From Polyangiales bacterium (GTDB lineage: Bacteria; Myxococcota_A; Polyangia; Polyangiales; JADJQN01): a stretch of 64,000 bases of DNA. Shown here in pieces: positions 5,184-47,207 of this stretch. The stretch's first letter is position 1; every line of letters starts with the position of its first letter. A program made the translations under genes and the position numbers. Location: assembly GCA_964202905.1 (NCBI GenBank), contig CAXNJO010000004.1, positions 128,001 through 192,000 of the forward strand, given 5' to 3'. The notes under the pieces are model-generated. The model searched no databases. It saw only the letters and a list, made by a program, of their open reading frames with translations, and was not told the origin of the DNA.

Positions 5184-6596
<1,413 letters not shown>

Positions 6597-10541: not shown

Positions 10542-10760
10542 GTTCACGCCTCCCGGTAGCGCGGAACGCAATGTCCGACGCGAGGCAGAGAACCGATGCG
10601 GCGAGGTGCACGGGCGGTTCGACGCGCGACGGGGGACGTCGATCTGATGCGCTGCCTCCTCGGACGCATGGACCGCGCGAGTCTACCGGAACCGGTGTCG
10701 ACTGTCCCCGATTCCGATGGGACGCGCAGCGTCTCGTTCCCGCACCCCGGACGGCATGCG

Positions 10761-18068: not shown

Positions 18069-19645
18069 CCATGCGCTCGCGCTCCGCCGCCATCCTCGGG
18101 ATGCTCGGCTGCATCCTGGCGTTGCTTGGCGTGCCGGTCTTCGTGGGCGCCGGGCTCGCGGGTTGTGGCGAGGACGCCACGGCTGAAGGGGAGGGGACGA
18201 CGCAGGTTTCGGGGGAGTCGACCGCCGGAGGTGAATCGGCTGACGGGGTCGTTGGTACGGGCGGAAGCCCGTCAGGCGGCGGCGCGGGAGCGACCGGTCC
18301 ATCCGCTCCGCCCCCGGGTGATCTCGAGGACGACGATGGCGCGCCACCGCCGTCGGGCGGCGCCACCGCACAATCGGCCGTCGACGGCGGAGTCGCCGCC
18401 ACACCGGCGAACGACGACCCGGGCTGGGGGTCGCCCGATGCTGACACGGGAACTCCGCTCCCCGCGCGTCGCGCCATGGGGACTGCTGCACGTGCGGCCT
18501 ACCGGAATGGCTTGGCCGCTTCAGCGTCCGGCAACGACGCGGCCGCCCGTCAGGCGTTCGAGGCGGCGCTGAGCGCCGACCCGGGTGCGTTCAAGGCGGC
18601 GTACAACCTGGGTGTCATCGCGGACCGCGCCGGGAACGAGAACCGCGCACTCGAGTACTATCGGCAATCTCTTCGGCTGCAGGCGGATTACGAGCGCGCG
18701 GCAGAGGGAATCATGGCGATCTACGTCCGGCGCGGTGCCGTTCCCGACGCATTGGCGTTCATCGAACCGCTGGCGCGGCAGTGGGGCCGCAACATCGCGT
18801 TGCAGGCCCTCTACGCCGAGATTCTCGTGGCCTCCGAGCGGCACGATGACGCCATCACCGCGGCGCGGGCGGCGCTTCGACGCGACGAGCGGTTCGTGCC
18901 GGCCATGATCGCCATCGTCAAAGCAAGCCTCAAGCGTCAACCGCCGCGGACGGAGCTCGCAGAGAGCGTGCTCGATCAAGCGCTCGCCATCGATGACAAC
19001 AATGCCGAAGTCCACTTCCTGAAGGGGCGCATGCTCCAGACGGCGAGTCGGCTGGGTGAAGCCCTCTCGGAGTATCGTCGAGCCGTGGATCTGCGTCCCG
19101 ATTTCGCGGAGGCGCGGGTCGCGTTGGGGCTCCAGTTCATCGCCTCGGGCAATTACGCCGAGGCGGAGCTAGCGTTCGAGGTCGCGTCGCGCTTGCTTCC
19201 GGGCAGCGTCGAGGTCGCTCTGAATCTCGCCGACTCGTACCGCGCGAGCAAGCAGTGGACGAAGGCGAAGTCGGCCTTCGACAGGGCGCTCGGGATGCGG
19301 GAGCGCTTGCCTCAGGCTCACTTCAACCTGGGCCTCATGTACATGGCTGCGGGTGATCAATATCCCGGCATGGACAAACTCACGGCTTTGCAGCGCGCAA
19401 CCCAAGAGATGAACTTGTATCGGGACCAAATGGGCCCGAGCATGCCCCGCACCGATCCCTCGGGGGATGTCCTCGCGGACCTTGCGAAGCAGATCGAGCG
19501 CGAGCAGAAGCGGCTCGAGCGTGAGAAGGTGCGGCTCGAGCGTGAGGCGGCGAAGAAGGCGCGTGATGCTGCCCGCGCCGCGTCGTCGGGCGCTCCCGAC
19601 GCCGGCGCTTCCGCAGCGCCTGTCCCGGCACCGTCCACCCCCTGA
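18065..19645 (+). CDS. TPR lipoprotein (GltE/AglT-like)
   Basis: Lipobox LAGC, G/S/D-rich linker, TPR array, charged coiled-coil tail. Confidence 0.75.
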   Translation: MTMRSRSAAILGMLGCILALLGVPVFVGAGLAGCGEDATAEGEGTTQVSGESTAGGESADGVVGTGGSPSGGGAGATGPSAPPPGDLEDDDGAPPPSGGATAQSAVDGGVAATPANDDPGWGSPDADTGTPLPARRAMGTAARAAYRNGLAASASGNDAAARQAFEAALSADPGAFKAAYNLGVIADRAGNENRALEYYRQSLRLQADYERAAEGIMAIYVRRGAVPDALAFIEPLARQWGRNIALQALYAEILVASERHDDAITAARAALRRDERFVPAMIAIVKASLKRQPPRTELAESVLDQALAIDDNNAEVHFLKGRMLQTASRLGEALSEYRRAVDLRPDFAEARVALGLQFIASGNYAEAELAFEVASRLLPGSVEVALNLADSYRASKQWTKAKSAFDRALGMRERLPQAHFNLGLMYMAAGDQYPGMDKLTALQRATQEMNLYRDQMGPSMPRTDPSGDVLADLAKQIEREQKRLEREKVRLEREAAKKARDAARAASSGAPDAGASAAPVPAPSTP

Positions 19646-29070: not shown

Positions 29071-29910
29071 TCAGGTCGACGTCTGCGCGTTGCGCTCGCG
29101 CTTGAGGTCGTGCTTGGCTGCCACGATCATCTGCTGATACGTGGAGCGCATCGCGCAGAACGTGAGCCCATCCTGTCCGTCGAGAAACCCTCGACGCCAA
29201 ACGTAGGCATACCCGAAGTACAACAGTGACCGCCCCGGTGCGCGCGTCGCGAAACGCTTCAGGGCCGCGCGCCGCACGAGCGGATCCTCGCTCACGAGCT
29301 CGCGTGGGGCGATCCCGAGCGCCTCTTGCTTCAGTTCGTATTCGGCTTCCTTCCGCGCGTAGCGAGCCTGTCGTTCGAACCAGTCCTGAAGTCCTTTGTG
29401 GTTCTCGTCGATGAGATCGTGCGCGAGCGCACCGAGCTCCCCCTCGAGATGCTGCGTCTCGGCGTGTCCGCGGTTTTCGTAGCGGAGCCTCCCGACCCGG
29501 AACAGGCGCACGACCCAGGTCGGGTACAAGGAGCTGTGTTGCAGCCACCGTCCCCACATGTAGAAGCGACGCTTCAGGCGGAAGGCCGCGAATCGCTCGT
29601 CCGCGCCGGGTAGACGCTGCGCGAACTCGGCGGCGAGTTCAGGCGGTACCCGCTCGTCGGCGTCGAGGACGAGCACCCACGGATGCCGCGGCGCCGTGTG
29701 GTCGAGTGCCCAGTTGCGCTGAGAGCCAAATCCCTCGAACGCGTGCTGGAAGAATCGGGCTCCCGCCACGCGAGCGAGGGATTCCGTGCCGTCGGTGCTG
29801 AAGGAGTCGATGACGATGATGTCATCGCACCACCCGAGTGATGCGAGGCAGCCCGGGAGATTGGCCTCTTCGTTGAGCGTAAACACCATCACGGATACGG
29901 GCGGAGTCAC
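29071..29910 (-). CDS. Glycosyltransferase family 2
   Basis: TLNEEANL, DSFSTDGT, QRNWAL, LDADE. Confidence 0.9.
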   Translation of the reverse strand: MTPPVSVMVFTLNEEANLPGCLASLGWCDDIIVIDSFSTDGTESLARVAGARFFQHAFEGFGSQRNWALDHTAPRHPWVLVLDADERVPPELAAEFAQRLPGADERFAAFRLKRRFYMWGRWLQHSSLYPTWVVRLFRVGRLRYENRGHAETQHLEGELGALAHDLIDENHKGLQDWFERQARYARKEAEYELKQEALGIAPRELVSEDPLVRRAALKRFATRAPGRSLLYFGYAYVWRRGFLDGQDGLTFCAMRSTYQQMIVAAKHDLKRERNAQTST

Positions 29911-29931: not shown

Positions 29932-31038
29932 TCACGGCTTCGAACAGGTGGCTTCACGAAGCCAGCGCCGGGACACGCCTTCCCAAGAAAAATTGCGTTC
30001 CATCCAGCTTCGCCCACGCGCGCCCATCGCGGCTCGGGGGAGCGTGCGCATGCGGGTGAGGGCGTCATGCAGGGACTGCGGGTCGTCGTGGACCCAGAGC
30101 CCGCACGTGTGGGTTTCCACGGCCGCCCATGGCGTGCCCCGGGACGCGATCACGGGGACTCCGGCGGCGAGGGCTTCGGCGATCGATTGTCCGAAATTCT
30201 CGCTGGTCGACGCACATACGTACACGTCTGCCGTCGAGAGCAGACGGTCGCATTCCTCGCGCGTGAGATGTCCTGCGAAGGTGATTCGGTCCATGAGCCC
30301 CAGAGAGCGGACCAGCGCGCGCAGCGTGTCGGCGTAGGGGAGGGGCCCGTCGCCGGCGATCGTGCAACGCCATGGGCCCGCGAGCATGGCGAGCGCCCGA
30401 ATCAGGCGGTCGATCCCCTTGATGGGATGGAGTCGGCTGATGCTCACGACGTGCAACTCTGCGGAATCCACGTGTGTGGCGCTGCACTCGGGCAGTCTGA
30501 CTCCGTTCGGCACGACGAAGGTCGGCAGTGCCGGAAACCACGCATCGAGCGCGTTGGCTTCTTCCTGCGAGGTGCAGTGCGCGATGGTGTTGTGCGGGAG
30601 CAGCGCCCGCATCGTGCGCAGCCAGAGCGTCTTTTTCGGAGGTGGCACCGCACCGAGCGCGAGCACGGCGCCACGAGGTGCCCAGACGAGACGCTTGCCG
30701 AGGCGTCGCGCAGCGCCGATGGTGGGGAACGTGGTGAAGTTGAACGTCGCGTTGAGGACGATCACGTCCGCATCCCGGCCGCAGCGCGCCAAATCCAGAA
30801 GCAGGGACGGCGCAGTCGCTTCTCGCATCCAGCGTCTTCGGTAGATGACCTCCGAGTGCCGACCGAGCGGCACACGGTCGGGAACATTCAAGGTCGCCGC
30901 CCCGTTGGCGTTCGTCGTGAGGACCTGCACCCGGCATCCAATGGCATCGAGACCACGGGCAAAACCCCAAGCCGATTCGGTGGTGCCGCCGTACACCATC
31001 GCCGGGTAGAACCCCGGTGTCACGTAGAGAACGTTCAC
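29932..31038 (-). CDS. Glycosyltransferase family 4
   Basis: SRLHPIKG, SENFGQSIAEALAAGVPVI; GTG at 31038 overlaps upstream stop. Confidence 0.9.
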   Translation of the reverse strand: MNVLYVTPGFYPAMVYGGTTESAWGFARGLDAIGCRVQVLTTNANGAATLNVPDRVPLGRHSEVIYRRRWMREATAPSLLLDLARCGRDADVIVLNATFNFTTFPTIGAARRLGKRLVWAPRGAVLALGAVPPPKKTLWLRTMRALLPHNTIAHCTSQEEANALDAWFPALPTFVVPNGVRLPECSATHVDSAELHVVSISRLHPIKGIDRLIRALAMLAGPWRCTIAGDGPLPYADTLRALVRSLGLMDRITFAGHLTREECDRLLSTADVYVCASTSENFGQSIAEALAAGVPVIASRGTPWAAVETHTCGLWVHDDPQSLHDALTRMRTLPRAAMGARGRSWMERNFSWEGVSRRWLREATCSKP

Positions 31039-31658
31039 GGAGTCGAGCGAGCGACGACGATCATCGATTTCCACAAATACGGGAGGCGACCGGCTCCGCG
31101 GATGTCATCGACGCGAAATCCCGCGTCGACGACGAGCGGCGCGAGCGTGGATGGGGAGAAGAACTTGATGTGCGCGCCATCGCTGCTCGAGGTGAAGTGA
31201 CGGTCCCACTTGCCGGTGAGCGAGAGGGCCAGGTTCTTCAGATACCCATGGTAGGGAGTCGAGAGGATGAGTGCGCCGCCCGGCTTGAGCACCTTGTGCG
31301 CGAGGGTGAGGAGTTTGCGCGGATGGTAGAGGTGCTCGATCACTTCGCAGGAAATCACCGTGTCGGCGCGCGGGAGTTCCAGGTCGTCGTAGACCGAGCC
31401 GAGGACGAAACGTGCCGCCGGGTGAGCGCGACGGGCTTGCTCGATTCCGTCGATCGCGGCGTCGGTCCCCGTCACGTCGTACCCGAGTCGAGCCAGTCGA
31501 CCGGCGAGATAACCGTTGCCACAGCCCAGGTCGACGACCACGCCCGCGCGAGGCGTGAGGCGGTTGACGAGTCCGAGGACCGGGGCCTCGAGGTAGTCGT
31601 TCGCGCAGGTCGGGGCGTCGCTCGTCCAGCCGTATCGCGTCTCAGTCGAGTCAGTCAT
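31035..31658 (-). CDS. Class I SAM-dependent methyltransferase
   Basis: VVDLGCGNG, EVIEHL, LKPGGALILSTPYHGY. Confidence 0.9.
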   Translation of the reverse strand: MTDSTETRYGWTSDAPTCANDYLEAPVLGLVNRLTPRAGVVVDLGCGNGYLAGRLARLGYDVTGTDAAIDGIEQARRAHPAARFVLGSVYDDLELPRADTVISCEVIEHLYHPRKLLTLAHKVLKPGGALILSTPYHGYLKNLALSLTGKWDRHFTSSSDGAHIKFFSPSTLAPLVVDAGFRVDDIRGAGRLPYLWKSMIVVARSTP

Positions 31659-31781
31659 GGTGTTTGCCGCTTCGAGGGATGGAGTCGCCGTGCGGGCCGG
31701 ATGAGGTCTGCATGACGGTGGCGATGCCAGCGCGGTGCGGGGGGCAAACGCCGTGGGCCTCCCGGGCTTCACGGCGCGCGC

Positions 31782-32852
31782 TCAGCCGACGACGGGCAGC
31801 CGGAGCCGCGTGCCGGTGGCGCCGTCGGCCCAGGCGCCGCGCCAACGGGGACGCTCCGCGACGGGGCCCGAGGGGGCGTCGCCGCGCCAGTGAGGCTTGC
31901 CGAAGTGCGCGAGGCAGCCGTTGCAGGGGAACGCGTCCCACGCATCGCCTGGGCCGGCCGCGATCGCAGCGAGTCGGGCCGCCTGCGTGTCGTGGATGAT
32001 CGTGAGCAGGCGCCCGTGCGCGGCCGGGAGCGACATCGTCGTGAGATCGCCCGCGATGTCCGAGCGGGTTCCCGACGCCGGGGTCCCCGCGTGCTGGCAG
32101 CAGAGGTTGAGTCGGCCCTCGACGTCGACGTGGAGCGTGTCGCTGCGGAACGGGTCGCACACGTGGAAGCGCGCCGCCTTTGGAAAGCCCTCGGGCATCG
32201 AGACGGGGACGGTGAGGACCGCGCTCAGCCGCTCGATGCGGTCGACGATGGCTGTCCACTCGTGCGCTGGGATGAAGAGCGCCGCGTCGAGCTTCGTGCC
32301 CGTCGCCTGCAACCAGGCGAAGGAGACGCGCGCCGCGCCGAGCTGCGCGGCCTGGAACGCGAAGGCCTCGATCTCATGTCGGTTCTTCGCGTGGACGACC
32401 ATCTGCAGCACGAACGGGATGCCGAGGCCCTCGCACGCCGCGATGGCCGACATGACCTCGCGAAAGCTGCCGGCGCCGCGGATCTCGTCGTGCACGCCCT
32501 CGGTCGCGCCGTCGAGGGAGAAGTCGAGCATCGTCAACGCGGCACGTCGCGCGGGGGCCGCGGCGAGGCCGGCGATCACGAAGGGCATCTGCGAGCCGTT
32601 CGTCACCATGTGCCACGACATGCCGTGTGCCGCGATGGCGTCGAGGACATGGAGGAACTGCGGATGGAGGGTGGGCTCGCCGCCCGTCAGTGCGACGTGC
32701 TCGACCGCATACACGGTGCGCGCTTCGCCGAGGACGCGCTCGAGCACGGGCAAGGCCAGATCCCGCGGCTGCAGGCCGGGGTCGCGCAGGCAATGTTGGC
32801 AGTTGAGATTGCAGCGATCCGTGAGGTGGAATGCGACCTGTCGCGATGTCAT
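31782..32852 (-). CDS. Radical SAM enzyme with Cys-rich (SPASM/twitch-like) C-terminus
   Basis: CNLNCQHC, LTGGEPTLHP, VTNG, FSLDG...HDEIRG; extra Cys in HVCDPF, NLCCQH, FPCNGC. Confidence 0.92.
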   Translation of the reverse strand: MTSRQVAFHLTDRCNLNCQHCLRDPGLQPRDLALPVLERVLGEARTVYAVEHVALTGGEPTLHPQFLHVLDAIAAHGMSWHMVTNGSQMPFVIAGLAAAPARRAALTMLDFSLDGATEGVHDEIRGAGSFREVMSAIAACEGLGIPFVLQMVVHAKNRHEIEAFAFQAAQLGAARVSFAWLQATGTKLDAALFIPAHEWTAIVDRIERLSAVLTVPVSMPEGFPKAARFHVCDPFRSDTLHVDVEGRLNLCCQHAGTPASGTRSDIAGDLTTMSLPAAHGRLLTIIHDTQAARLAAIAAGPGDAWDAFPCNGCLAHFGKPHWRGDAPSGPVAERPRWRGAWADGATGTRLRLPVVG

Positions 32853-32889
32853 GGCCGCTTCTCTCGGACTGCTGCGAGCGCCCCGTGGC

Positions 32890-33063
32890 TCAGCCGCTCG
32901 ACGTCAGGCCGGTCGCCGAGACGCCGCCGCCGCTGAAGAGCGTGGCCCGTTGCACGGAGCGCCGACGAAGGACCTTCGGGGCCTCGTAGGGACGGCGCGT
33001 GTCGGACGACGTCGTGGGCACGGGGGTCTCGCTCGGCGGTAGGGTGCGGTCGTTCGTGGTCAT
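32890..33063 (-). CDS. Putative RiPP precursor peptide, 57 aa (not in ORF track)
   Basis: Manual translation MTTNDRTLPPSETPVPTTSSDTRRPYEAPKVLRRRSVQRATLFSGGGVSATGLTSSG; GAGGAG RBS; YxxPx(V/L) motif and candidate Thr-2; GC-rich third positions; fills the gap between sulfotransferase and rSAM. Confidence 0.8.
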   Translation of the reverse strand: MTTNDRTLPPSETPVPTTSSDTRRPYEAPKVLRRRSVQRATLFSGGGVSATGLTSSG

Positions 33064-33141
33064 ACGCTCCTCGGGCCCGGAGTCCGTTGCGCGCGGACGG
33101 CGGCAGATTCAGCGCGCAGTTACCACGATACCGGGCCGGTG

Positions 33142-34116
33142 TCATCCCCACCCCCCGAGGCGGGTGCGGCGCACGAGCTCGCGCAGGGCGTGGACGCGCC
33201 GGCCGCGGGTGGCCACGCCCGCCGCGACGCGCTCGGCGAGGCGCTCGAGGCGCGTGCGGCCGAGCGCGAGCTGCCAAGCCGGTGACCAAGGCGCGTCGGG
33301 GGTGATCGCGTAGCCGAGAGCGGCGAAGCTCGGATCGCCGACGAAGGCGGCCGTGACACGGTGTCGGGCCTCGGCCGAGAGTTCGCGCCGCCACGCGTCG
33401 GCGCGGCTCGCATCGGGCGCGCGTCCAATCGCCGCCGCGCTGTACCAGGCGCCATCGGCGGCGAGGGCGGCGTCGTGCGCGCGGCGCTCGGGCGCGAGCG
33501 CGGCCTCGTCGAAGGGGACTTCGAGAAACGCGCAGACGCCCTCGGCCACGGTGCGCGGGGTGGTCGCGAGCTCTTCGAAGCGGACGAGCAGGGTGCGCCC
33601 GGGATGTGCGCGCCGCGCGGCGACCACGGCGTCGGTGCACTTCTTCACGGTGAAGATCGCTGACGCGAGGTCATGGGTCATCCACGGTGTGGGGCGTTGG
33701 AGGTGGCGCGCGCGGCGGCCGACCTCGAGCAGCGAGTGCACCGTCGCGCGGGGGTCGCGGACGCAGAGGACCATCCGCGCGTCGGGCAGCATGTCGAGGA
33801 GCGCGGGGGCTTCGAGGACATTCCACGGCGTCTTGTCGAGGAGCAGGCGGGCACTGCGCCGCGCGCCGTAGCCGTCGAGCAGGGCGCGGAGGTACTCGCC
33901 GCTCGCGCGGTCGATCGTGGCGCGGTCGAAATACACCGCGTGTCGTCCGGCTTCGACGCGCGCGAGGAGCGCGCCGCGGAGTCGGACCAGATCCGGGACG
34001 ACGTCGAGTTCGGGCCCGCTCGCGACGCCGGGAAGGCCATCGAGCATCGTCTGCAAGAGCGTCGAGCCGGTTCGAGGGGCGCCGGCAATGAAGGCGAAAC
34101 GGAGCGCGTCGCTCAT
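33142..34116 (-). CDS. PAPS-dependent sulfotransferase
   Basis: GAPRTGSTLL (5'-PSB), DKTPWN, VRDPRATVHS (3'-PB), VRFEEL. Confidence 0.9.
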   Translation of the reverse strand: MSDALRFAFIAGAPRTGSTLLQTMLDGLPGVASGPELDVVPDLVRLRGALLARVEAGRHAVYFDRATIDRASGEYLRALLDGYGARRSARLLLDKTPWNVLEAPALLDMLPDARMVLCVRDPRATVHSLLEVGRRARHLQRPTPWMTHDLASAIFTVKKCTDAVVAARRAHPGRTLLVRFEELATTPRTVAEGVCAFLEVPFDEAALAPERRAHDAALAADGAWYSAAAIGRAPDASRADAWRRELSAEARHRVTAAFVGDPSFAALGYAITPDAPWSPAWQLALGRTRLERLAERVAAGVATRGRRVHALRELVRRTRLGGWG

Positions 34117-35087
34117 GGGACGCCTCCCGAGGCTGCGTCGATGCGCCGCCAGACGGCATGCGGATCGTCGAAGAAATCAGGGCCGGGGACGAGCGTGACC
34201 GTGGACGCTTGCGCCGCGAGAACGCCCAAGAGCGCGAAATGCGCCTGCCGCCATGGCAACCCCTCGGCAGCGAGCAGCGCGGACGACTCGAGGAGACCCG
34301 AGAACCCTTCGGCCGGCGCGACGCGCTCGACGTGCGTGCGCGGTGCGCGATCTGCGGAGATCAGGAGGATGCGGTCGACGTGCCGCGGCGACGACGGTGC
34401 AGGGGCGCGGCGGGCCTCGAGCCGTGCGGGCGCGATCTCGTCCCAGCCGAGGGCGCTGAGCCCCGGCAGGCGCGGCAGGGCCTCCGCAGACAGATGGAAA
34501 GGGCGCGGGAGCGGGGCGGCGATCGCGTGCCGATCGCCCTCGGAAAGCAGACAGGCGTCGTCGCTGAGCATGCTCAGCCCCGCCTCACCGAGCAGCGCGG
34601 TCGTGGTGCTCTTGCCCGCGCCGCTCGGTCCGACGAGGAGGAGCGTTTGCCCGTCGCGGGTCGCGCAGAGGCCGGCATGTACGTGGAAGCGCGCGTGCCA
34701 ACGGAGCGCGAGCACGAGCGCGATGTTCAGTGTCGTGCGGGCGAAGATGCCCCGCGGATCGAGCGCGGGCTCGGTGAGTGCGGCGTGGATGGCGCGGCCC
34801 CCGGGGTCGACGCGCACGCACGCCGAACCGTCTTCGACATGCAGTGCGCCGTCGTCGTCGGCGTGGACCTGCACGCGCCCGTGGAAGAACGACGCGACGG
34901 CGCTCGGCGCGCGCGGCGGGAGCGCCTCGACGAGCGCGAGGGATACGTGCGCGTGCGCCGGCTTGGCGCCGGGCATCGCGGGGGCAAGCGGGCCGAGGGG
35001 CGCGAACGCGGACTTCGGGATGCGCGCGTCGCGCGTGATGCGGAAGGTGATGTCCCCGAGGCGGAGGATGGGCAGATCGTGGGTCAT
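34113..35087 (-). CDS. HPr-kinase-like P-loop kinase (lasso-cluster kinase type)
   Basis: VHAG, GPSGAGKSTT, LSDD; ATGA overlaps at both ends (start 35087). Confidence 0.8.
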   Translation of the reverse strand: MTHDLPILRLGDITFRITRDARIPKSAFAPLGPLAPAMPGAKPAHAHVSLALVEALPPRAPSAVASFFHGRVQVHADDDGALHVEDGSACVRVDPGGRAIHAALTEPALDPRGIFARTTLNIALVLALRWHARFHVHAGLCATRDGQTLLLVGPSGAGKSTTTALLGEAGLSMLSDDACLLSEGDRHAIAAPLPRPFHLSAEALPRLPGLSALGWDEIAPARLEARRAPAPSSPRHVDRILLISADRAPRTHVERVAPAEGFSGLLESSALLAAEGLPWRQAHFALLGVLAAQASTVTLVPGPDFFDDPHAVWRRIDAASGGVP

Positions 35088-36085
35088 CGCCCGAGGAGCC
35101 GTCGGGCGTACGCGCTCGCCAGCGAGGTGGACGACGTGCCGGGCCGCGATGCACGCACGTAGCGCGGGTGGGGAAAGATCAGCCAGGGGAGTTGGGAGCG
35201 CTCGTGTCGGGCGATCTGCAACGCGCGCCGCAGGGAGCGCTCGGCGTGTCGCCACACCGACCCGCGCCGATCATCGGCGAGCGTTCGGGCGAGCGCGTCG
35301 GCGTCGCCGGCGTGCGCGGCCCGGGTGAGCGCCTCGAGGGTCGCGACGCCGCGTGCGGCGTGGGGATCGCGGACGATCGTGCGCCAGGTCGCGGCCGAGA
35401 CGTGCACGCGGACCGCACGCAGATCGAGCGCGTGGCGGAGCACGCCGCGGCGCGTGTCGTGATGGTGTCGTTCGACGTGTCGGCAGAGACCGACGGCGAT
35501 CGCGACGTTCGAGGGGATGCGGACCTCGCCGTGCGGCGTCGTGCACCGCTGCGTCTCGGCGAGCGGGCGTGCGACCACGTGGAGATCGACCGTCGCGCCG
35601 CCGGGCGCTTGCCAGACGCCGCCCGGCCACTCGTGGCCCGAGCGCACGTGCCCATCGTGTCGCAGCGTAGGGAGCAGGCGATGGCCCGTCGCCGCGAGCG
35701 CGCGCGTCGCGGCGGGGGCGTCTTCCCGCGTGACGAGCACGTCGACGTCCGACGCGTAGCGCGCGCCGGGCGCGAGCACGCCTGCGGCGAGGAGCGCGGC
35801 GCCCTTGACGACGACGGCCTGCGGGCACGCCGCGCAGATGGACGCGGCGCTTCGCAGCGAGAGGGCCGCGTGGACCGCGGCGTCTGCGCGTGCGTCGTCG
35901 AGCGCGTCGCGGACGTCGTCGGGGGCCTCGGGGAGAGCGTCAGCCAGGGAGGCGCGCAGCCCCTCGAGCACCGCGACACGTGCGGCCTCGGCGAGCACGG
36001 TCCGCCATCCCGCGTGCGTCGCCGGCGCAACGCCGAGAAGCAGCGCGCGGACCAGCGCGAGGCGCGCCTCCGGCGTCTCAGCCAT
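35084..36085 (-). CDS. Nucleotidyltransferase (NTP_transf_5-like family)
   Basis: VVVKGAAL, RYASDVDVLV, VDLH, LDLR motifs. Confidence 0.82.
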   Translation of the reverse strand: MAETPEARLALVRALLLGVAPATHAGWRTVLAEAARVAVLEGLRASLADALPEAPDDVRDALDDARADAAVHAALSLRSAASICAACPQAVVVKGAALLAAGVLAPGARYASDVDVLVTREDAPAATRALAATGHRLLPTLRHDGHVRSGHEWPGGVWQAPGGATVDLHVVARPLAETQRCTTPHGEVRIPSNVAIAVGLCRHVERHHHDTRRGVLRHALDLRAVRVHVSAATWRTIVRDPHAARGVATLEALTRAAHAGDADALARTLADDRRGSVWRHAERSLRRALQIARHERSQLPWLIFPHPRYVRASRPGTSSTSLASAYARRLLGR

Positions 36086-36362
36086 GCGACACGACGACGA
36101 GCGCGTCCGCGATGAGGTCGTCGAGCAGCGCTGCGACGTCTCGCTCGGCGTCGGCTTCGGTGCACGCGAACTGCGCCACGAGCGTTGCCGTGAGCGTCGC
36201 GCGCGGTGCCTTGCCGGCCTGCAACACGCGAAACACGCGCGCTGCCGTCGTGTTCAGCGTGTAATAGAACTTCGTGTCGAGGTGCAGGAGCACCGCGGTG
36301 CCGTCCGGGAGATCCGTGGCGACGACGCGGTCGCTCGCCTGAAATTGAGGTGTGTCGCTCAT
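36078..36362 (-). CDS. PqqD-family RiPP recognition element (lasso B1-like), 94 aa
   Basis: AVLLHLDTKFYYTLNTTAARVF...DVAALLDDLIADALV; ATGA overlap with B2 stop. Confidence 0.9.
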   Translation of the reverse strand: MSDTPQFQASDRVVATDLPDGTAVLLHLDTKFYYTLNTTAARVFRVLQAGKAPRATLTATLVAQFACTEADAERDVAALLDDLIADALVVVSHG

Positions 36363-36865
36363 GGTGTCGTTGGGCACGGGGGGACGCGGAGCAGGGGAGA
36401 GTACCCGGTTGTCTCGCGGTCGAGGACCGGGGTGCCATCGACCTCGGCCCATGCGTGGCACGGCCCGTCGAGGTCGTTCAGCGGGGCGCCGAGCACGAGC
36501 GCCGCGTCCCAGCCCAGGCGCCGCAAGAGCACGGTGCGGCCGACGGCCCGATCGAGGCAGTTCGGCGTGTGGCGCCCGGCCGTGAGCCCCGCGAGCGCGT
36601 CGGCGAGCCGCACCGCGGTGACCGCCTCCGGCCAGGGCCAGCGTGCGCTGCGCCGCACCCCGCGTGGATCGAGACGGGCGACGAGCGCATCGACGGGCGT
36701 ACGTGCGAGGAGCGGTCGAATCCGCCGCCGCGCGAGGACGTTGCCGACGACGACGCGCACGCCCGCGACGCCGTGCCGCCCCAGCCAGCCGAGGACCTCG
36801 TGGCGCAGCCGCGTCACGGGGAGAGCGTCGAGCCTGGGTGTGCGCGGGTCAAGGATCGACCGCAC
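36359..36865 (-). CDS. Lasso-type B2 transglutaminase-like leader peptidase
   Basis: NCLDRA...LRRLG...LVLG...CHAWAEVDG (catalytic Cys/His pattern); start uncertain (GTG 36865 or 36817). Confidence 0.85.
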   Translation of the reverse strand: MRSILDPRTPRLDALPVTRLRHEVLGWLGRHGVAGVRVVVGNVLARRRIRPLLARTPVDALVARLDPRGVRRSARWPWPEAVTAVRLADALAGLTAGRHTPNCLDRAVGRTVLLRRLGWDAALVLGAPLNDLDGPCHAWAEVDGTPVLDRETTGYSPLLRVPPCPTTP

Positions 36866-37772
36866 GGAGGCACTCCACTGGATGACGTGGCGTGGTCGCG
36901 AGCGTGAGCCAGAGCGCGCCCTCGCCCGTCTGCACGAGGACGTGCGGCCCGCTTTGCGCGAGGACGCAGCCAGGGGCGGGGGCGTCCGCGGGCGCCGTGT
37001 GGTCGACGATGCGGGCCGCGAGCGCGCGTACGCGCCGCCCACGCGCGTCGCGGAAGTGTCCGCCGTTCGCTGCTTGGATCCGCCGGGCGACGTCCTGCGC
37101 CGCCCGGGTCAGATCAGGCTGGAGTTCGGCGCTGCGGGGCCGGGGCTCGAGCGCTCCGGTCGGCTGCGGGCGGGCTCTCTCGGGTGTGTCGCGGATCGCG
37201 GCGAGGATGCCGGGCAGCGCCGCCGCCGCGAGCCCGAGCAAGCGCTGCGTCAGGAGATCGCACGAGTCGCCCGGCAGGATGGGCGTCTCCTCGGCCCAGA
37301 GGATCGGGCCGGCGTCGAGCTCGGGCGTCATGCGATGCACGCTCACGCCCGTGGAGGCGTCGCCCGCGAGCAATGCGCGCTCGACGGGGCGTGGGCCGCG
37401 GTGGGCCGGGAGCAGCGACGGATGCACGTTCCAGCCGCCAAGTGGCAGACGCGACAGCACGGAGTCGGGGATTCTCACGGGGAAACCGGCGCAAATCAGG
37501 AGATCCGCCTGCGCCCGGAGCACCCGAGCCCAGTCCGCCTCGCCGCGGACGCGCACGACGGGCACCCCGATGCTGCGCGCGAGGCGTACGACGGCGGGGC
37601 GGCGTTGCGGGCGCAGCGCGTCGCGGGCGTCGCGCGCGACCTGACGCCATGGGCTCACCCCCGGCAGCACGCACGCGACCAGATCGTGCCCAGCGAGGCG
37701 CACCGCGTGTGCGACGACCACCGCGTGCCCCACGAACACGGCACGCAGGGCTCGGCGGAGGGGTGGGGTCAC
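36849..37772 (-). CDS. N10-formyl-THF-dependent formyltransferase (Fmt/ArnA-like)
   Basis: NVHPSLLPAHRGPRP, GVSVHRMTPELDAGPI, Fmt-like C-domain; start taken as GTG 37772. Confidence 0.85.
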   Translation of the reverse strand: MTPPLRRALRAVFVGHAVVVAHAVRLAGHDLVACVLPGVSPWRQVARDARDALRPQRRPAVVRLARSIGVPVVRVRGEADWARVLRAQADLLICAGFPVRIPDSVLSRLPLGGWNVHPSLLPAHRGPRPVERALLAGDASTGVSVHRMTPELDAGPILWAEETPILPGDSCDLLTQRLLGLAAAALPGILAAIRDTPERARPQPTGALEPRPRSAELQPDLTRAAQDVARRIQAANGGHFRDARGRRVRALAARIVDHTAPADAPAPGCVLAQSGPHVLVQTGEGALWLTLATTPRHPVECLRAVDP

Positions 37773-37916
37773 CGTCCGCGAGTTTGACCCATCGGGACGT
37801 GGCGGCCATGCGCCTCCGCGCCGGGGCGGCGACGCCGCGATCGGGACGCGCGCGCCAACCGTCGAACGTGCACAGCTCCGTTGTGCCCGCGCCGAGTCCG
37901 GGATTAGAGTCGCGCC

Positions 37917-40088
37917 ATGGGCTTCCGAAGCTTGTTGCAAACGTCTTGCAGGGCGGGGCTCCTCGCGGCCTGCGTTGGGTCAGCAGGTTGCGCCAGCGAG
38001 CTGGTGCCACGCGTCGAGGCGATCTGCGACGGGGCGAGCGACTGCCTCGACGCCGATGTCGAAGCGCTCCTCGATGCGTCGGTCGACGCGGCGATCGGCG
38101 ACGACGCCGGTGCCTCCCCCGATGGCGGGGAACGCGGCGACGCCGGCAACGAGACCGCCGATGCGGCCGTGGTGGACGCGGAGTTGGGCGATGCGGCGCT
38201 CGCCGACGCCTCCGACGCAGCGGCCCCCGACGGAGGTTCTTCGGACGCGGGGCCCCCAGACGCCGGCCCTCCGGCGTGCACCTGGTCCCCGTACGGGGAG
38301 GGCATCACCGGCGGGCAGGTGAACTGGGCCGCGTTCGACCCTGCCGAGCCGGGACGCATCTGGGCGACGACCCCGACACAAGTCCTTCGCACGACAGCGG
38401 GCGCGACGTGGGCCGAGACCGGGCGTCCCGGGAGCTCGGTCACCAGCCTCGCGCTCCCTCGCGATGGGCTCCCCCTGATCGGCGCTTCGTCGGATGGTCT
38501 GCGTCGCTCCGACGATGACGGCGTCACCTGGCGCGCGGGCGCGCTGGGCGGGCTGTCCATCACGAGCGTCGTGCGCAGCCCCGCGGACCCCCGCGTGCTG
38601 TTCGCGACCACCAGCGGAGGCGGCTTCTTCATCTCGTCGGACGGTGGGACGGGCTGGCGCTCAGCCGGCTTCGGGCTCTCGCCGTCTGCGGTGCTGGCCG
38701 TGGCGCCCGACCCCCGGGGCGGGCGCGACGTGGTCGCCGGCGGCCCCTACCTCAACGCGACCGGGGGCTGGTCAGACACGGGCTTCCTCGCGCGCTCGTC
38801 GGACGGCGGTGTCACATACGCTGTCGTCTTCACCGAGACTGGACGCACCCAGGCGCTCGCACGCTGCCCCGGCGATCCGGACGTGCTCGTCTCCGCGCAC
38901 GTCTACGGCATGGCGCGCAGCCGCGACGGCGGTCGCACGTTCACGCGCATCGCGCCGACGGTCTTCGGCAACACGGGAGCTGTCGCGCTTGCGGGCGCTG
39001 CGTGCGAGACCGTCTACGCGACGCGCATCGGACAGGGCGTGATGCGCTCGCGCGATGGCGGGGACACGTGGGAGGGGCCGTTGCGAGAGGGCATGACGCT
39101 CGTCCCGGGTCAGACTCCCCGGGGCCTCAGCGTCGACCCCGCGGATCCGCGGCACGTCGTCGCGTCGTCGAGCGGCGGTCTGTTCGAGACCTTCGACGGC
39201 GGCGATCGTTGGACCCCTGTGCCCGGCATCGGCATCCCGGTGCTCCGTGCGGTGCGCGCGAGCGAAGCGGAGCCCGCGACGCTGTGGCTCGCGACTTGGG
39301 GGCTCGGCGTGTGGATGCGACCGCCGGGCGATGTCTGGCGCTTCGTCTCCGGCGTCCCGCGCGATCTCGTGAACTCCGTGCGCGAGGACGCCGAAGGCCG
39401 CGTCTTTTCCATGGGATATCGGTCGCCCGACCGCGTGGCGTTCACGAACCCCGGGCCGATGGGCAACGTGTTCGACGTCGCCACCGATCCGGGTGCGCCG
39501 GACGTCGTGTGGGCGGTCACGCAGACACTCGGCATCTGGCGCTCCTCGAACGGCGGCGTGACCTTCACGCAGGCGAACGGCGGCCTCGCGCCGTGGGTGA
39601 CGCCCGTGGGCACGTTCGTCGACGCGCGGTCCGTCCTGGTGACCGCGGGCGCCGTGCTCGTCGGCACGCAGGGGCGTGGTGTGGCGAGAAGCACCGACGA
39701 CGGCGCGTCGTTCGCCCTCGACCCGTCCGGGGACGGGCGACGGATCAGCTGCCTCGAGTCGCTCGGCGACGCGGGCGTCGTCGCCTGTGTGAGCGCGGCC
39801 GACCCCGGCTTCCTGCTCTCGCGCGACGCAGGGCTCACGTGGAGCCCATGGAACGATGGGCTCGCGTCGCTCGACGTCGCAGGCATCGTGCGTGACCCCC
39901 GGACGGGGTCGGTCTACGCGACGACCTCGGAAGGCGTCTACGTGCGGGGCGTGGACCGATGGGAGCCCGTCGAGCCGGGCTGTCTCCAGCCCGGTCTTGG
40001 CGCACCGACGGTCCAGCGCGACGGCGACGGACGCTCGTACCTCGTCGTCCCGGCGCCGGAAGCCCTGCTCGTGCGCCGCCCGATCTGA
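37917..40088 (+). CDS. BNR/Asp-box repeat beta-propeller lipoprotein
   Basis: Lipobox SAGC, D/A/G-rich linker, repeated SxDGGxTW motifs (SDDDGVTW, SSDGGTGW, SRDGGDTW, TFDGGDRW, SRDAGLTW). Confidence 0.85.
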   Translation: MGFRSLLQTSCRAGLLAACVGSAGCASELVPRVEAICDGASDCLDADVEALLDASVDAAIGDDAGASPDGGERGDAGNETADAAVVDAELGDAALADASDAAAPDGGSSDAGPPDAGPPACTWSPYGEGITGGQVNWAAFDPAEPGRIWATTPTQVLRTTAGATWAETGRPGSSVTSLALPRDGLPLIGASSDGLRRSDDDGVTWRAGALGGLSITSVVRSPADPRVLFATTSGGGFFISSDGGTGWRSAGFGLSPSAVLAVAPDPRGGRDVVAGGPYLNATGGWSDTGFLARSSDGGVTYAVVFTETGRTQALARCPGDPDVLVSAHVYGMARSRDGGRTFTRIAPTVFGNTGAVALAGAACETVYATRIGQGVMRSRDGGDTWEGPLREGMTLVPGQTPRGLSVDPADPRHVVASSSGGLFETFDGGDRWTPVPGIGIPVLRAVRASEAEPATLWLATWGLGVWMRPPGDVWRFVSGVPRDLVNSVREDAEGRVFSMGYRSPDRVAFTNPGPMGNVFDVATDPGAPDVVWAVTQTLGIWRSSNGGVTFTQANGGLAPWVTPVGTFVDARSVLVTAGAVLVGTQGRGVARSTDDGASFALDPSGDGRRISCLESLGDAGVVACVSAADPGFLLSRDAGLTWSPWNDGLASLDVAGIVRDPRTGSVYATTSEGVYVRGVDRWEPVEPGCLQPGLGAPTVQRDGDGRSYLVVPAPEALLVRRPI

Positions 40089-43854: not shown

Positions 43855-45889
43855 TCAGTTTCGAACGAAGTAGACGTCGGTGTTCCCGGTGTCGAAGGCA
43901 GTCGTGCCATCGATGCTGAGCACCGAGGAGGTCGTCTCGAAGGTGGTCCACTCGCCATTGCGGCTGATGGAAACGACCGGTGAGAGTGGCGTCACGGACG
44001 TGATGCCCACGGCCGACGCGCCCTCGCCATTGCGCGACATGAGTCGGGTCGTCCCCGTGCAGCGGTCCCGCATGTAGCTGGCCTCGCCGACGGTCGTACC
44101 GTCGAACGCGCCGTTCGACCGGAACACGGTACGACAGCCGTTCGACGACACCCTCGCGACCGTGCTCAGCGAACCCCCCGTCTGCGCGCCCGCGGAGTTC
44201 ACGGAGAGGATCGACATGGTCCCGGGCGTCGACAGGCCACCGACGATGGCGCCCGAGGGAACGAACTGGAACACGTCGGTCGACGCGTTCGTGTCCGCGA
44301 TGCCCTGCGAGCAGGTCGAGTGGAACACGACCGTCGTTCCGTCGCCGGAGATCGACGGGCTGAGAGGCTCCAAGCAATTCGTCGTGATGCGGGTCGTCGT
44401 GCTGGCGGACACCACACGGAGGAACACGTCGCGCGATCCGGGGGGTGTCCCCGCTCGCGAGGTTGACCGTGTTGGAGTCGAACACGACGCGGTTTCCATC
44501 GTCGCTGATGGACGCGCGCAGGGAGACGTTCCGATTGCTGCTCTCGGGGGGAGCCACTCCGGCTCCACCCATCAGCGTGCTGCCCGTCGCGCCGTTCGCC
44601 ACCGAGATGCTCGTGGTGGTCCCGGCAGACCGGTCCTTGCGGTACACCTGCGCGCGGCCGTTGATGCAACCCGCCGTGATGTTCGCCGCGCTCGGTGCGG
44701 TTGTGCTCTGACCGCACAGGCGCGCGCACGTCGAGTCGAAGGCGACGAAGCGGCCGTTCGCGCTGATCGAGGGGCGGAATGCACCGACCCCCTGGAGCGG
44801 GGCCGCGGTCGGCGAAGTGGGCGCGCAGAATGCCGGGATGGTGCCCGAGGTCGTGGTGCTCACGCCGGTCGTCGTCCCCGCCGTGATGTCGCGCGCGAAG
44901 ATGTCGGACGCTGCGTTCGCGTCCGACGGGACCATGTCGGTCGCCGTGGACGCGAAGACCACGATGTTCCCGTCGCTGCTGAGGCAGGGGGTCGTCGCGT
45001 CGCCGGTCGTCGTGATGGCACCGGTGCTGCGGAAGCTGACGAGGACGAGGCCGCCGGTGGTCGTGTCGTACCGGTAGACGTCGCTTCGGCTGTTCGTATC
45101 CGTCGAGACGAGCGGAAGGGAGGTCGAGAACACCGAGAAGCGTCCGTCATCCGTGATGCAGCCAACGCGCGCGTCGCCCGCCTGCTTGCGCCCCTGCTCG
45201 TCGAGCGACGCGATGGACGGCGCGTTCGGGCCGCCCGCCGTCTGGACCGTCGCGAAGACCTTACCCTTGAACGTGAAGCTCGTCGACGTCGGCTGGCGGA
45301 AGCGCCAGCGGCGCTGCGTCACGAAGCGGGTGAAGCCAGCGGCGTTCGGCTCGAGGGTCCCGTACCGCCAGAGGCCGCGCGTCGCGTCGAGCCCGAGCGT
45401 CGTGCTCGTGGCGCCTCCGTAGCCCTCGAACCCTGCGGTGATTTCCGTGATCTGCGAGTAGGCGTTGCTCAGGTGCCGGGTCGCGAAGAAGTGGCGCAGG
45501 TCCACGTCTCCGAAGAAGCAGTTGGGTGCCCCACCGGGGATGGCGCCGCACTCGGCGCTGCCCGCAGCGCGCGTGCCGGAGGCGACGGTGATCAGCTCCG
45601 CGGTGTCCGCGGGGCCGCTGCCGGTCATGCCGTCCTTGACCACCGTCACCTCGGTCAGCGGATCGCGCGCGCCGGCGATCTCACTCGCGCCGCGGAGGGC
45701 GCCGTCGTCCAAGAAGCGCAGCGTCATCGTCCCGGACGCGACGTCCACGGTGCCCTCGAAGTCGAGGACGACCGTGTCCGGGTCCGCCTCGAGGCTCCAC
45801 GTGGACTCCGGTCCCCCTTCGCTCGCGCAACCCGAGGCGGCGCAGGTCAGCGCGGCGACAACAGCGAAAATGGACGATATTCGACGCAT
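43855..45889 (-). pseudogene. Thr/Ser-rich PD40/TolB-like beta-propeller lipoprotein, frameshifted (real or assembly error)
   Basis: Lipobox ASGC; repeats ISANGRFVAF, ISDDGNRVVF, DTNSRSDVY; frame switches at G6 run 44440-44445, and removing one base restores SGDTPGSRDVFLR. Confidence 0.75.
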
Positions 45890-45941
45890 GATCACGAACC
45901 TCCAGGGCGACGCTCGGCGAGGAGCGCGCGTAAGTTTCAGG

Positions 45942-46064: not shown

Positions 46065-47207
46065 ATGGTTCCCCCCGCACGGCGCCTCGTCTACCTCGCG
46101 CCGGGGCTCTTCGACTTCGGCGGCATCGCGCGCTACGGCCGCTACCAGCTGCGAGCCCTTCGAAGCGTCGGCGGCGACCGCGTGCGTGCCGCGTCGCTGC
46201 TCGGACCGAGCGCGGACGCCTCGTTCGCGGAAGCCGTCGAGGTCGATTACATCGCCGGAGGGAACGGCCGTCGTCATAAGGCCGCGTTCACGGCGCGCGC
46301 AGCCGCCTGGGCCCGGCCGGGCGCGCTCGTGTGGTGCGGGCACCTGCACTTCGCCCCGCTCGGACTCGGTCTGGCCGCCGCGGTCGGCGGCACGTGCGTC
46401 GTCAACGTGTACGGACTCGAAGTGTGGTCCGCCCGTCGCCGAGCCGCCCTCGCGGCCCTCGGGCATGTCGAGGTCGTGTCCGATTGCCACGCCACGGCCG
46501 ACCACCTCGTCTCGAACGGGATCGTCCGCCCGGACCGCATCCGCGTCATCTGGGACCCGGTTGACGTCCGCTTTTCCCCCGGCTCCGTCGACCCCGCGAT
46601 CGAGGCCCGCTACGGCCTCACCCCGACGTCCTTCCGCGTCATGTTCCTCGGGCGCCTCTCGGCCGGAGCGGCGCACAAGAGCCCGGATGCGTTGATCCGG
46701 GCGTTCGCGGCCGCAAGGCTCCCAGCGGACGCCCAGCTGGTGATCGCCGGGGCAGGGGATCGGCGACCGGCACTCGAGGCGCTCGCGGCGGAGCGGGGAT
46801 GCGCGGGTCGGGTCGTCTTTGCCGGACGCGTCGCGGACGAGGACCTGCCGGGTCTTTACCGATCGGCGTCGTTGTTCGTGCTCGTCAGCCGGAAATACGA
46901 TGGAGGCGGGGAGGGCCTGCCGCTCACCCCGATCGAGGCCGCGGCGTGCGGCGTGCCGATCGTCGTGGGCGACGAGGATGGCTCGCGCGAAGCCGTGCGG
47001 GACGGCGAGACCGGTTTCCTCGTGCGTTCCCGCGAGGACGCCGCGCTCGTGCGGGTGCTGGAAGACGCGGCCGCCGATCCGAACAGACTTCGCGGCCTCG
47101 GGGCCGCCGCTGCGCGCGACGCACACGAGCGTTTCTCCTACGCGCGCTTCGAGCGTCAGCACCGCGCGCTGATCGAGGCGATTGACGCCGGGAATGTCGG
47201 GCGATGA
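46065..47207 (+). CDS. Glycosyltransferase family 4
   Basis: GGIARY, FLGRL, EGLPLTPIEAAACGVP, DGETG. Confidence 0.9.
   Translation: MVPPARRLVYLAPGLFDFGGIARYGRYQLRALRSVGGDRVRAASLLGPSADASFAEAVEVDYIAGGNGRRHKAAFTARAAAWARPGALVWCGHLHFAPLGLGLAAAVGGTCVVNVYGLEVWSARRRAALAALGHVEVVSDCHATADHLVSNGIVRPDRIRVIWDPVDVRFSPGSVDPAIEARYGLTPTSFRVMFLGRLSAGAAHKSPDALIRAFAAARLPADAQLVIAGAGDRRPALEALAAERGCAGRVVFAGRVADEDLPGLYRSASLFVLVSRKYDGGGEGLPLTPIEAAACGVPIVVGDEDGSREAVRDGETGFLVRSREDAALVRVLEDAAADPNRLRGLGAAAARDAHERFSYARFERQHRALIEAIDAGNVGR

Follow-up and report, generated by a model that had tools for sequence, protein, structure and literature searches.

A lasso-type leader without a lasso cyclase: a conserved Myxococcota cassette for a predicted linear, kinase-tailored peptide

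In the LPPs (LppA/B/K/S/N/D), described as restricted to the Bacillota, a discrete RiPP recognition element (RRE; RiPP, a peptide made on the ribosome and modified after translation), an HprK-like kinase, and a nucleotidyltransferase are encoded together, and no cyclase accompanies them (Popov 2026, Nat Commun, PMC13381572). The LPP leader carries the motif YxxPxVLxHQxIxFETxxS, the SipW-like LppS cuts after Thr(-1), and Ser3 is polyphosphorylated (PMC13381572). Lasso leaders carry YxxPxL at positions -17 to -12 and a penultimate Thr or Ile (Duan 2023, PMC10368454); in the bsf cluster of Bradymonas, the kinase BsfK phosphorylates core Ser3 and needs B1 to do so (PMC10368454), and in the case of pseudomycoidin, PsmN, in which an Asp-x-Asp/Lys-Gly motif was mutated, is needed for the hexose on the phosphate (PMC6993621). 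In a 2023 review, transglutaminase-like leader peptidases are listed for lasso peptides only (PMC10885120), and in RRE-Finder ~300 "discrete lasso RRE" matches beside radical S-adenosylmethionine (rSAM) enzymes were treated as false positives (PMC7470986). Here we describe a 57-codon minus-strand open reading frame (ORF) with a lasso-type leader, and the maturation genes around it, in a 64,000-nt stretch of the genome of a Polyangiales bacterium (contig CAXNJO010000004.1; the whole stretch is called the window).

The ORF is probably the A gene of a conserved Myxococcota maturation cassette, with a linear modified peptide, not a lasso-folded one, as its product. Judged from its genes, the cassette is a kinase-tailored RiPP type with a lasso leader and no cyclase, which differs from the LPPs by a B2 protease and an rSAM enzyme, and we consider it likely that it encodes an LPP-like linear phospho(glyco)peptide pathway in which B2 takes the place of the signal-peptidase-type enzyme and an rSAM step is added. 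The ORF and its ribosome-binding site had been proposed in an earlier reading of the same DNA (the original prediction), and both were found as claimed, the translation being exact:

32890..33063, minus strand: precursor peptide gene, 57 aa plus TGA stop, ATG start; translation MTTNDRTLPPSETPVPTTSSDTRRPYEAPKVLRRRSVQRATLFSGGGVSATGLTSSG
32938-33063, minus strand: leader, residues 1-42
32893-32937, minus strand: predicted core, residues 43-57, FSGGGVSATGLTSSG
33067-33072, minus strand: ribosome-binding site GAGGAG, 3 nt 5' of the peptide ATG, read from the sequence

To place this gene among its relatives, a first set of 12 loci (L042-L053) was compared with the window, and a scan with the rSAM alignment, at one genome per species, gave 80 loci, comprising 57 with rSAM orthologs, the fragment L115, and 22 with distant rSAMs (9 of the 57 ortholog loci repeat contigs of the first set). 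A homologous small ORF was present in all 12 of the first loci, where tblastn found the same gene set. A hidden Markov model (HMM) built from 12 family peptides, that of the window and 11 from the first loci, matched in 54 of the 80 loci, namely 53 of the 57 ortholog loci and L115, a Sandaracinus fragment. None of the 22 loci carrying distant rSAMs only had a peptide match, and PqqD, B2, HprK, and NTP5 were likewise not found in those 22. The neighborhood of homologous rSAM genes, where the original prediction had suggested looking for relatives, holds peptides with conserved leaders and hypervariable cores.

Judged by this conservation, the small ORF is a real precursor gene of an enzyme-modified peptide. 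That it could instead be a chance open frame in high-GC DNA, never translated, is hardly credible, even though 148 ORFs of at least 40 aa overlap the surrounding 20 kb and the peptide matched no family in Pfam or NCBIfam. The ORF is kept beside the same enzyme set across several Myxococcota families, and it carries, besides its ribosome-binding site, the composition of a coding sequence: GC at codon positions 1/2/3 is 0.59/0.69/0.90, with flanking genes at 0.83-0.91 in the third position. In close homolog pairs, which are not independent of each other, nucleotide differences at codon positions 1/2/3 number 173/133/383, and between the peptide genes of loci L054 and L059, the codon changes are synonymous in 15 cases and nonsynonymous in 4. 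When the single sequence was searched against 401 genomes of the phylum, 8 foreign matches were free of in-frame stops (E 2e-11 to 2e-4), one of them directly 5' of an rSAM ortholog; 3 further matches below 1e-3 contained in-frame stops and were counted as noise. Of 429 candidates from a profile search of 5.8 billion proteins, 250 are relatives at E <= 1e-3; among the matches listed (120 of the 250), lengths are 45-69 aa, names are missing or "hypothetical protein", and Pfam domains are absent. Several of the database homologs have been called as genes in Polyangium isolates. A promoter/terminator scan of 32600-33400 found none, the spacer between the peptide and rSAM genes gave an RNA-fold z-score of +1.5 with no special hairpin, and among public sequencing runs, no RNA dataset is listed as containing the region; the public DNA datasets that contain it are lake or freshwater metagenomes (best share 0.50).

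All 57 rSAM orthologs, at 40-60% identity, are from Myxococcota, with hosts in Polyangium, Byssovorax, Minicystis rosea, Sandaracinaceae, Bradymonadia, and Anaeromyxobacteraceae; cultured carriers of the cassette include Polyangium fumosum DSM 14668, P. jinanense SDU13, and Minicystis rosea DSM 24000. The distribution is patchy, since full-length orthologs (48-53% identity) were found in 5 of 60 related genomes, and the same-genus genome (80% complete) and two genomes of the same family had none.

The family set comprises 58 peptides with 54 distinct leader-plus-core sequences, in which positions are counted with a cut after Leu42. The N-terminal third of these peptides is variable and is followed by a block kept in every member. 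Within it, Tyr26 (-17) and Pro29 (-14) are invariant (54/54 each), position 31 (-12) is Leu, Val, or Ile in 48/54 (Val31 in the window), and a basic run comes next. Position 36, with Ser in 40/54 and Pro in 7/54, is therefore not an obligatory site, position 37 is Val, Leu, or Ile in 54/54, position 41 (-2) is Thr in 47/54 (otherwise Val in 4, Ala in 2, and Ile in 1), and Leu42 is again invariant (54/54). This spacing agrees with the published lasso register (PMC10368454) and bears out the lasso-type leader that had been proposed from the window sequence. Downstream of Leu42, the first residue is Phe, Leu, or Val in 47/54 (Phe 27, Leu 12, Val 8, with Gln 2, Ile 2, Gly 1, and Thr 1 among the others), the second is Ser or Thr in 52/54 (Ser44 in the window, 18 residues after Tyr26, as Thr41 is 15 after it), and the third is Gly, Pro, or Ala in 50/54; a hypervariable tail follows, with no conservation past core positions 1-5. 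A conserved leader joined to a variable core is what marks a RiPP precursor. The cores are 9-30 residues long, mostly 14-16, and consist of Gly (22%), Ser (13%), Thr (11%), and Met, Ala, and Val (~8% each), with ~2% Asp plus Glu and no Lys, Arg, Trp, or Tyr in any of the 54 distinct sequences. Cys occurs in 4 of the 54 distinct cores and is missing from the other 50, that of the window included.

A few members have unusual cores. Those of loci L096, L100, L101, and L115 hold two Cys and an acidic residue, and the cores of L100 and L101 end in Pro-Pro-Pro-Cys. In the Sandaracinaceae-type loci L053 and L103, the cores begin with Gln; the L053 core has Glu-Asp at positions 7-8, yet no cyclase was seen in the L053 locus.

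The original prediction had further claimed that the core is unable to form a lasso ring, and the wider family agrees. In the window, no Asp or Glu follows the YEAP motif, and the last 15 residues hold the 6 Ser/Thr and 5 Gly that had been counted; across the family, Asp or Glu lies near core positions 7-9 in only 1 of the 54 distinct cores, leaving 53 without the acceptor. Set against what defines a lasso system, the leader motif, B1, and B2 are present, whereas the cyclase, the acceptor, and a small residue at core position 1 are absent. A true lasso peptide, with its cyclase gene at some other place in the genome, would be compatible with the lasso-type leader, B1, and B2, and with an assembly that is 94.5% complete (5.68 Mb) and not closed. 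We nevertheless regard this as extremely improbable, because the genome has one Asn_synthase match, on another contig, which passes the AsnB model TIGR01536 (367.8 vs 267.1) and fails both lasso-cyclase models, NF033535 (207 vs 525) and NF033561 (81 vs 300); by these profile scores, it is a housekeeping AsnB. Among the 58 related loci, 0 of 85 unassigned called proteins of 430-760 aa matched Asn_synthase.

The peptide gene stands among the following genes, all of which are read in the same direction:

36849..37940, minus strand: Fmt-like formyltransferase (Pfam Formyl_trans_N, E 5e-27); start uncertain; optional member
36359..36865, minus strand: lasso-B2-type transglutaminase-like Cys protease (Pfam Transglut_core3, E 4e-11); GTG start at 36865 or 36817
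36078..36362, minus strand: PqqD-type RRE (B1-like), 94 aa (Pfam PqqD, E 1.1e-11)
35084..36085, minus strand: NTP_transf_5 nucleotidyltransferase, PsmN/BsfN/LppN-like (Pfam PF14907, E 2e-13)
34113..35087, minus strand: HprK-like peptide kinase (NCBIfam HprK_rel_A, E 1e-9); likely ATG at 35087, longest ORF to 35255
33142..34116, minus strand: sulfotransferase (Pfam Sulfotransfer_3, E 8.5e-29); operon member in this genome
31782..32852, minus strand: radical-SAM enzyme, 356 aa (Pfam Radical_SAM, E 1.5e-20)

The ORF coordinates give ATGA overlaps between B2 and PqqD, NTP_transf_5 and the kinase, and the kinase and the sulfotransferase, which argues for a single operon; the Fmt stop overlaps the candidate B2 start, and gaps of 78 nt and 37 nt separate the sulfotransferase gene from the peptide gene and the peptide stop from the rSAM start. 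Synteny of the cassette is kept in 12/12 of the first loci. The catalytic motifs are intact: in B2, which scores 33.6 bits in NCBIfam lasso_biosyn_B2 (cut-off 33), the Cys and a His-Ala-Trp motif are kept at a level of at least 90% in 50 sequences; Lys-Gly and Asp-x-Asp of NTP_transf_5 are kept in 36 sequences; and the His, the GxxGxGK[ST] P-loop, and the Asp-Asp of the kinase are kept in 47 sequences, with a P-loop-to-Asp-Asp spacing equal to that of the BsfK residues shown to matter (PMC10368454). Partner genes were counted by family HMMs over six-frame ORFs of 59 loci, 39 of which are "full-flank" loci, where the sequence extends 5 kb or more to either side of the rSAM gene:

PqqD: 38/39 full-flank loci
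B2: 38/39 full-flank loci
HprK-like kinase: 36/39 full-flank loci
NTP_transf_5: 31/39 full-flank loci
ABC exporter: 29/39 full-flank loci
346-aa methyltransferase-like protein: 19/39 full-flank loci
PD40 propeller type a (PD40a): 13/39 full-flank loci
PD40 propeller type b (PD40b): 9/39 full-flank loci
Wzz/GNVR: 9/39 full-flank loci
unknown 465-aa protein (unk465): 8/39 full-flank loci

The Fmt family was found in 6/59 loci (5/39 full-flank loci), and PD40a, PD40b, or unk465 family genes in 39/59 loci. The accessory genes follow the type of core: the 346-aa methyltransferase-like gene is present in 20 of 24 loci with Met-rich cores (>=2 Met; Polyangiaceae type) and in 3 of 30 loci with Met-poor Gly/Ser/Thr cores, the type of the window, while PD40-type propellers occur in 24 of the 30 Met-poor vs 2 of the 24 Met-rich loci. 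These sub-types are descriptive only, as related genomes are not independent. In Met-rich loci, the unknown 465-aa protein is often encoded just upstream of the peptide.

The LPPs are the closest published relative of this cassette, and the original prediction had tied the peptide neither to them nor to kinase/nucleotidyltransferase chemistry. The two systems share a recurrent RRE, HprK-like kinase, and NTP transferase (the first, third, and fourth lines of the counts above), with no cyclase found, a YxxP leader, identical distances from Tyr to Thr (15) and from Tyr to Ser (18), a capsule or exopolysaccharide setting, and a patchy distribution (PMC13381572). They differ in the protease, as the LPPs use a SipW-like signal peptidase and the Myxococcota cassette a lasso-B2-type Cys protease; no signal-peptidase family turned up in the 30 most common gene clusters or in the 85 large proteins scanned, small S26-type peptidases not having been specifically searched for. 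In addition, LPP clusters have no rSAM, the words "radical" and "rSAM" being absent from the paper, and the LppA core has 45 aa, whereas the Myxococcota cores, rich in Gly, Ser, Thr, and Met, are uncharged and have 9-30 (PMC13381572). The LPP exporter is MsbA-like (PMC13381572); the ABC exporter of this family is present in a majority of full-flank loci and absent from the window. Likeness to the phospho-lasso systems of paeninodin, pseudomycoidin, and bsf lies in the split B1 (PqqD) and B2, the kinase K, the nucleotidyltransferase N, the ABC exporter D, YxxPxL at -17 to -12, Thr (or Ile/Val) at -2, and shared kinase catalytic motifs; unlike them, the Myxococcota family lacks the cyclase C, the Asp/Glu acceptor, and Gly/Ala at core position 1, and has the rSAM in addition (PMC10368454, PMC6993621).

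By analogy with these relatives, maturation would proceed in the following steps: (i) the 94-aa PqqD protein would bind the leader via Tyr26-x-x-Pro29-x-Val31; (ii) the RRE-guided HprK-like kinase would phosphorylate core Ser44, a position suggested by its Ser/Thr conservation and by a distance of 18 from the Tyr, which equals that of LppA Ser3 and is one less than that of BsfA Ser3; (iii) NTP_transf_5 would decorate the phosphate, probably with a hexose as for PsmN; (iv) B2, presented with the leader by the RRE, would cut past Thr41-Leu42 and release FSGGGVSATGLTSSG; and (v) the product would be exported by the ABC exporter, in most loci though not in this window, or by the surrounding polysaccharide machinery. 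The rSAM, always encoded beside the peptide gene, would add the family-defining step. In this genome, going by gene order only, the coupled sulfotransferase may add sulfate and the Fmt-like enzyme an N-formyl group, both of which are speculation.

For the first of these steps, which had been put forward in the original prediction as PqqD-leader binding, the predicted PqqD-peptide complex scored 0.44 (runs 0.43, 0.44, and 0.46), vs 0.02 for the best of 3 controls, with at least 97% of contacts shared between runs and a partner pLDDT (predicted local distance difference test) of at least 52. Of 157 solved complexes, 116 reach the mark used for such scores, as do 2 of 215 mismatched pairs, and the range from the mark to 0.60 holds only 18 of the 157 solved complexes along with both passing mismatches. 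The prediction thus supports binding weakly, and since RRE-leader complexes have already been solved, the pass may reflect likeness only.

Several points weigh against an LPP-like linear phospho(glyco)peptide pathway. Relaxed HMM and regex searches gave no convincing peptide in 4 of the 57 ortholog loci (L062, L082, L087, and L107). The Asp of the Cys-His-Asp triad of B2 is not clearly conserved in the alignment, the PqqD protein scores 50.7 bits in the NCBIfam lasso PqqD chaperone model, below its cut-off of 70, and the kinase scores 38 in HprK_rel_A, far below the cut-off of 200. No cassette-type ABC exporter is encoded anywhere in the 64,000-nt window. The analogy is itself incomplete, because in the heterologous host the LPP nucleotidyltransferase showed no activity and the end product of the LPP pathway is open (PMC13381572). 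The cut site is ambiguous between Leu42 (the lasso B2 register) and Thr41 (the LPP register); a cut after Leu42 is favored because the protease is B2-type, which keeps the 15-residue core of the original prediction as the preferred one, and a cut after Thr41 as in the LPPs is possible. Finally, a fold search with the rSAM model does not separate peptide-acting enzymes (PqqE, SuiB, and SkfB) from sugar-acting ones (BlsE and DesII), so that the rSAM substrate may not be the peptide backbone.

From its sequence and its model, the rSAM is a SPASM/twitch enzyme. It begins directly with the CxxxCxxC motif (residues 14-21) and therefore has no N-terminal RRE of its own; in an alignment of nine orthologs, Cys14, Cys18, and Cys21 are invariant, as are Cys232, 251, 252, 310, and 313, a single Cys set of the auxiliary-cluster type arranged as C-x13-G-x4-C-C and a later C-x-x-C. 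The enzyme is the most conserved protein of the cassette (47-60% identity). A profile search of the PDB placed PqqE first (E 3.5e-18), then SkfB (3e-16) and YydG (5e-7), and the best NCBIfam match was MftC (E 1.3e-23, far below the cut-off), with ScmF also matched. With the structural model (pLDDT 83.8), BlsE, PqqE, DesII, SuiB, and SkfB were approximately equal (TM 0.55-0.61; BlsE E 2.5e-13 and TMq 0.56, DesII 2e-12 and 0.57), and the fold matches include CteB and anSME.

These fold matches count in favor of a rather unlikely alternative, an LPP-type phosphoglycopeptide pathway in which the rSAM modifies the sugar or nucleotide-sugar used by the nucleotidyltransferase, like BlsE, DesII, or BtrN, and not the peptide backbone. 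BlsE and DesII are level with PqqE and SuiB in that search, the cores have no conserved cross-link partner, and the cassette lies among sugar-nucleotide and glycosyltransferase genes. However, the peptide gene lies a few tens of bases from the rSAM start in most loci, as it does here, the closest matches by sequence are peptide maturases, PqqE and SkfB (and MftC and ScmF in NCBIfam), and the nucleotidyltransferase is missing in 8 of the 39 full-flank loci of a set that the rSAM, the most conserved protein, defined. It is unlikely, too, that the rSAM replaces the lasso cyclase and closes a new macrocycle (C-C, C-O, or C-N), so that the product would be cyclic. The rSAM does occupy the place of the cyclase in an otherwise lasso-type gene set, and its nearest relatives PqqE, SkfB, and SuiB form cross-links; against this, nothing is conserved past core positions 1-5, the cores lack Trp, Tyr, Lys, and Arg, Cys is found in 4/54, and lengths range from 9 to 30, and in such variable cores, without conserved partner residues, a ring with defined partners is hard to place.

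Returning to the linear peptide, the guess we prefer for the rSAM step, held with low confidence, has the enzyme abstract a hydrogen within the conserved junction Leu-(Phe/Leu/Val)-(Ser/Thr)-(Gly/Pro/Ala). Epimerization or a short-range cross-link would be the outcome, since the cores share no conserved Cys, aromatic pair, or other residue that could act as a partner. The epimerase YydG has one [4Fe-4S] auxiliary cluster and one H-donor thiol, and as a guess by analogy, the five auxiliary Cys of the rSAM would fit the same arrangement. What a radical-SAM enzyme does to a core that offers neither Cys nor aromatic partners can be tested directly.

Two other peptide classes were considered and rejected. 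A sactipeptide or ranthipeptide does not fit a window core without Cys (50 of the 54 distinct cores likewise), and a triceptide-type cyclophane, taking its motif as generally understood, does not fit a family in which 22/54 sequences have Leu, Val, or Ile instead of an aromatic residue at core position 1.

As in the PqqE/PqqD and MftC/MftB pairs, the rSAM lacks an RRE domain and is encoded with a small separate PqqD protein. Their substrates hold a cross-linked Glu/Tyr or Val-Tyr, which the Myxococcota cores do not; moreover, only five auxiliary Cys are conserved here, and PQQ/mycofactocin-type pathways have no B2, kinase, or nucleotidyltransferase. The SynChlorMet (SCM)/HPr-rel-A systems (TIGR04249-04251, TIGR04352) likewise combine an HprK-like P-loop protein, a PqqD-type protein, and a radical-SAM/SPASM enzyme, but the scores against their models are far below the cut-offs (ScmF 81 vs 400, ScmE 67 vs 400, ScmC 18.5 vs 125, and HprK_rel_A as given above). 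A literature search found no paper on the SCM/HPr-rel-A cassettes and no published description of the present cassette, with most subscription journals lying outside its scope. If the LPP-like reading is correct, the lasso module for leader recognition and cutting (B1/B2) would be reused outside lasso peptides, together with an rSAM enzyme, and the idea of cyclase-less, kinase-tailored peptides in capsule loci would extend from the Bacillota to the Myxococcota, with another protease and an extra enzyme. The family would escape mining tools for which a cyclase is obligatory, and likewise those that set aside lasso-type RREs beside rSAMs as false positives.

Two side observations concern the rSAM. 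Past the last Cys pair, all nine orthologs (9/9) close with the invariant motif Arg-x-Arg-Trp-Arg-Gly (window 31782-31850), a region where the model has low confidence (pLDDT <50 from residue 337). The nearest non-orthologous relatives (L111-L133 except L115) share 30-35% identity across the first 200 residues and form the N-terminal domains of ~1000-aa proteins in Desulfobacterota, Planctomycetota, and others.

The right two-thirds of the window (22358-63999) is one exopolysaccharide/capsule locus, and the peptide cassette lies in its middle. The locus encodes an epimerase, a DegT aminotransferase, a beta-barrel protein, Wza, a GDP-fucose-synthase-like protein, glycosyltransferases (GTs), a GDP-mannose dehydratase, a Wzz/GNVR tyrosine kinase, a carbamoyltransferase, a priming Glycos_transf_4, a UDP-glucose dehydrogenase, and a second sulfotransferase. 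Polysaccharide context recurs elsewhere, with Wzz/GNVR in 14/59 loci, plus Wzy_C, epimerases, and GTs. Genes of this locus outside the cassette include the following:

31035-31772, minus strand: methyltransferase, 245 aa, 3' of the rSAM gene; polysaccharide-locus gene
29932-31074, minus strand: GT4, 3' of the rSAM gene; polysaccharide-locus gene
29071-29910, minus strand: GT2, 3' of the rSAM gene; polysaccharide-locus gene
37917-40088, plus strand: BNR/sortilin-type beta-propeller, 723 aa, with a lipoprotein-like N-terminus; divergent from the cassette
43861-45892, minus strand: PD40b-family beta-propeller lipoprotein gene (HMM E 1.5e-82), lipobox at its start; ~5.5 kb upstream of the cassette
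47204-48016, plus strand: second sulfotransferase (Sulfotransfer_1, E 1.4e-28); adjoins a GT1 gene

Given this setting, we also consider it possible, though quite unlikely, that the peptide is a ribosomal primer or anchor for the surrounding polysaccharide locus and not a free secreted product, in which case Ser44, through the kinase and the nucleotidyltransferase, would carry a phosphodiester-linked sugar that glycosyl-, sulfo-, methyl-, and formyl-transferases extend and decorate, with the rSAM step serving for protease-proofing. If true, the cell surface or matrix would hold a peptide-linked (phospho)glycan, handled jointly with a beta-propeller lipoprotein. The second sulfotransferase beside the GT1 gene suggests that the locus may make a sulfated polysaccharide, and the operon sulfotransferase may belong to polysaccharide sulfation rather than to the peptide. 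In the 12 first loci, no tblastn match was found to that sulfotransferase, the 245-aa methyltransferase, GT4, or GT2 of the window.

The BNR/sortilin propeller matched none of the PD40a, PD40b, or unk465 family HMMs. In the PD40b gene, the alignment to a homolog follows frame -1 as far down as 44474 and frame -2 from 44436 onward, which points to a frameshift or an assembly error between these positions. Outside the polysaccharide locus, the window encodes the following:

3744-5102, plus strand: sigma-54 response-regulator activator
5184-6596, minus strand: sigma-54 response-regulator activator
9924-10571, minus strand: extracytoplasmic function (ECF) sigma factor
11668-19645: three very large tetratricopeptide repeat (TPR) proteins, before the polysaccharide locus

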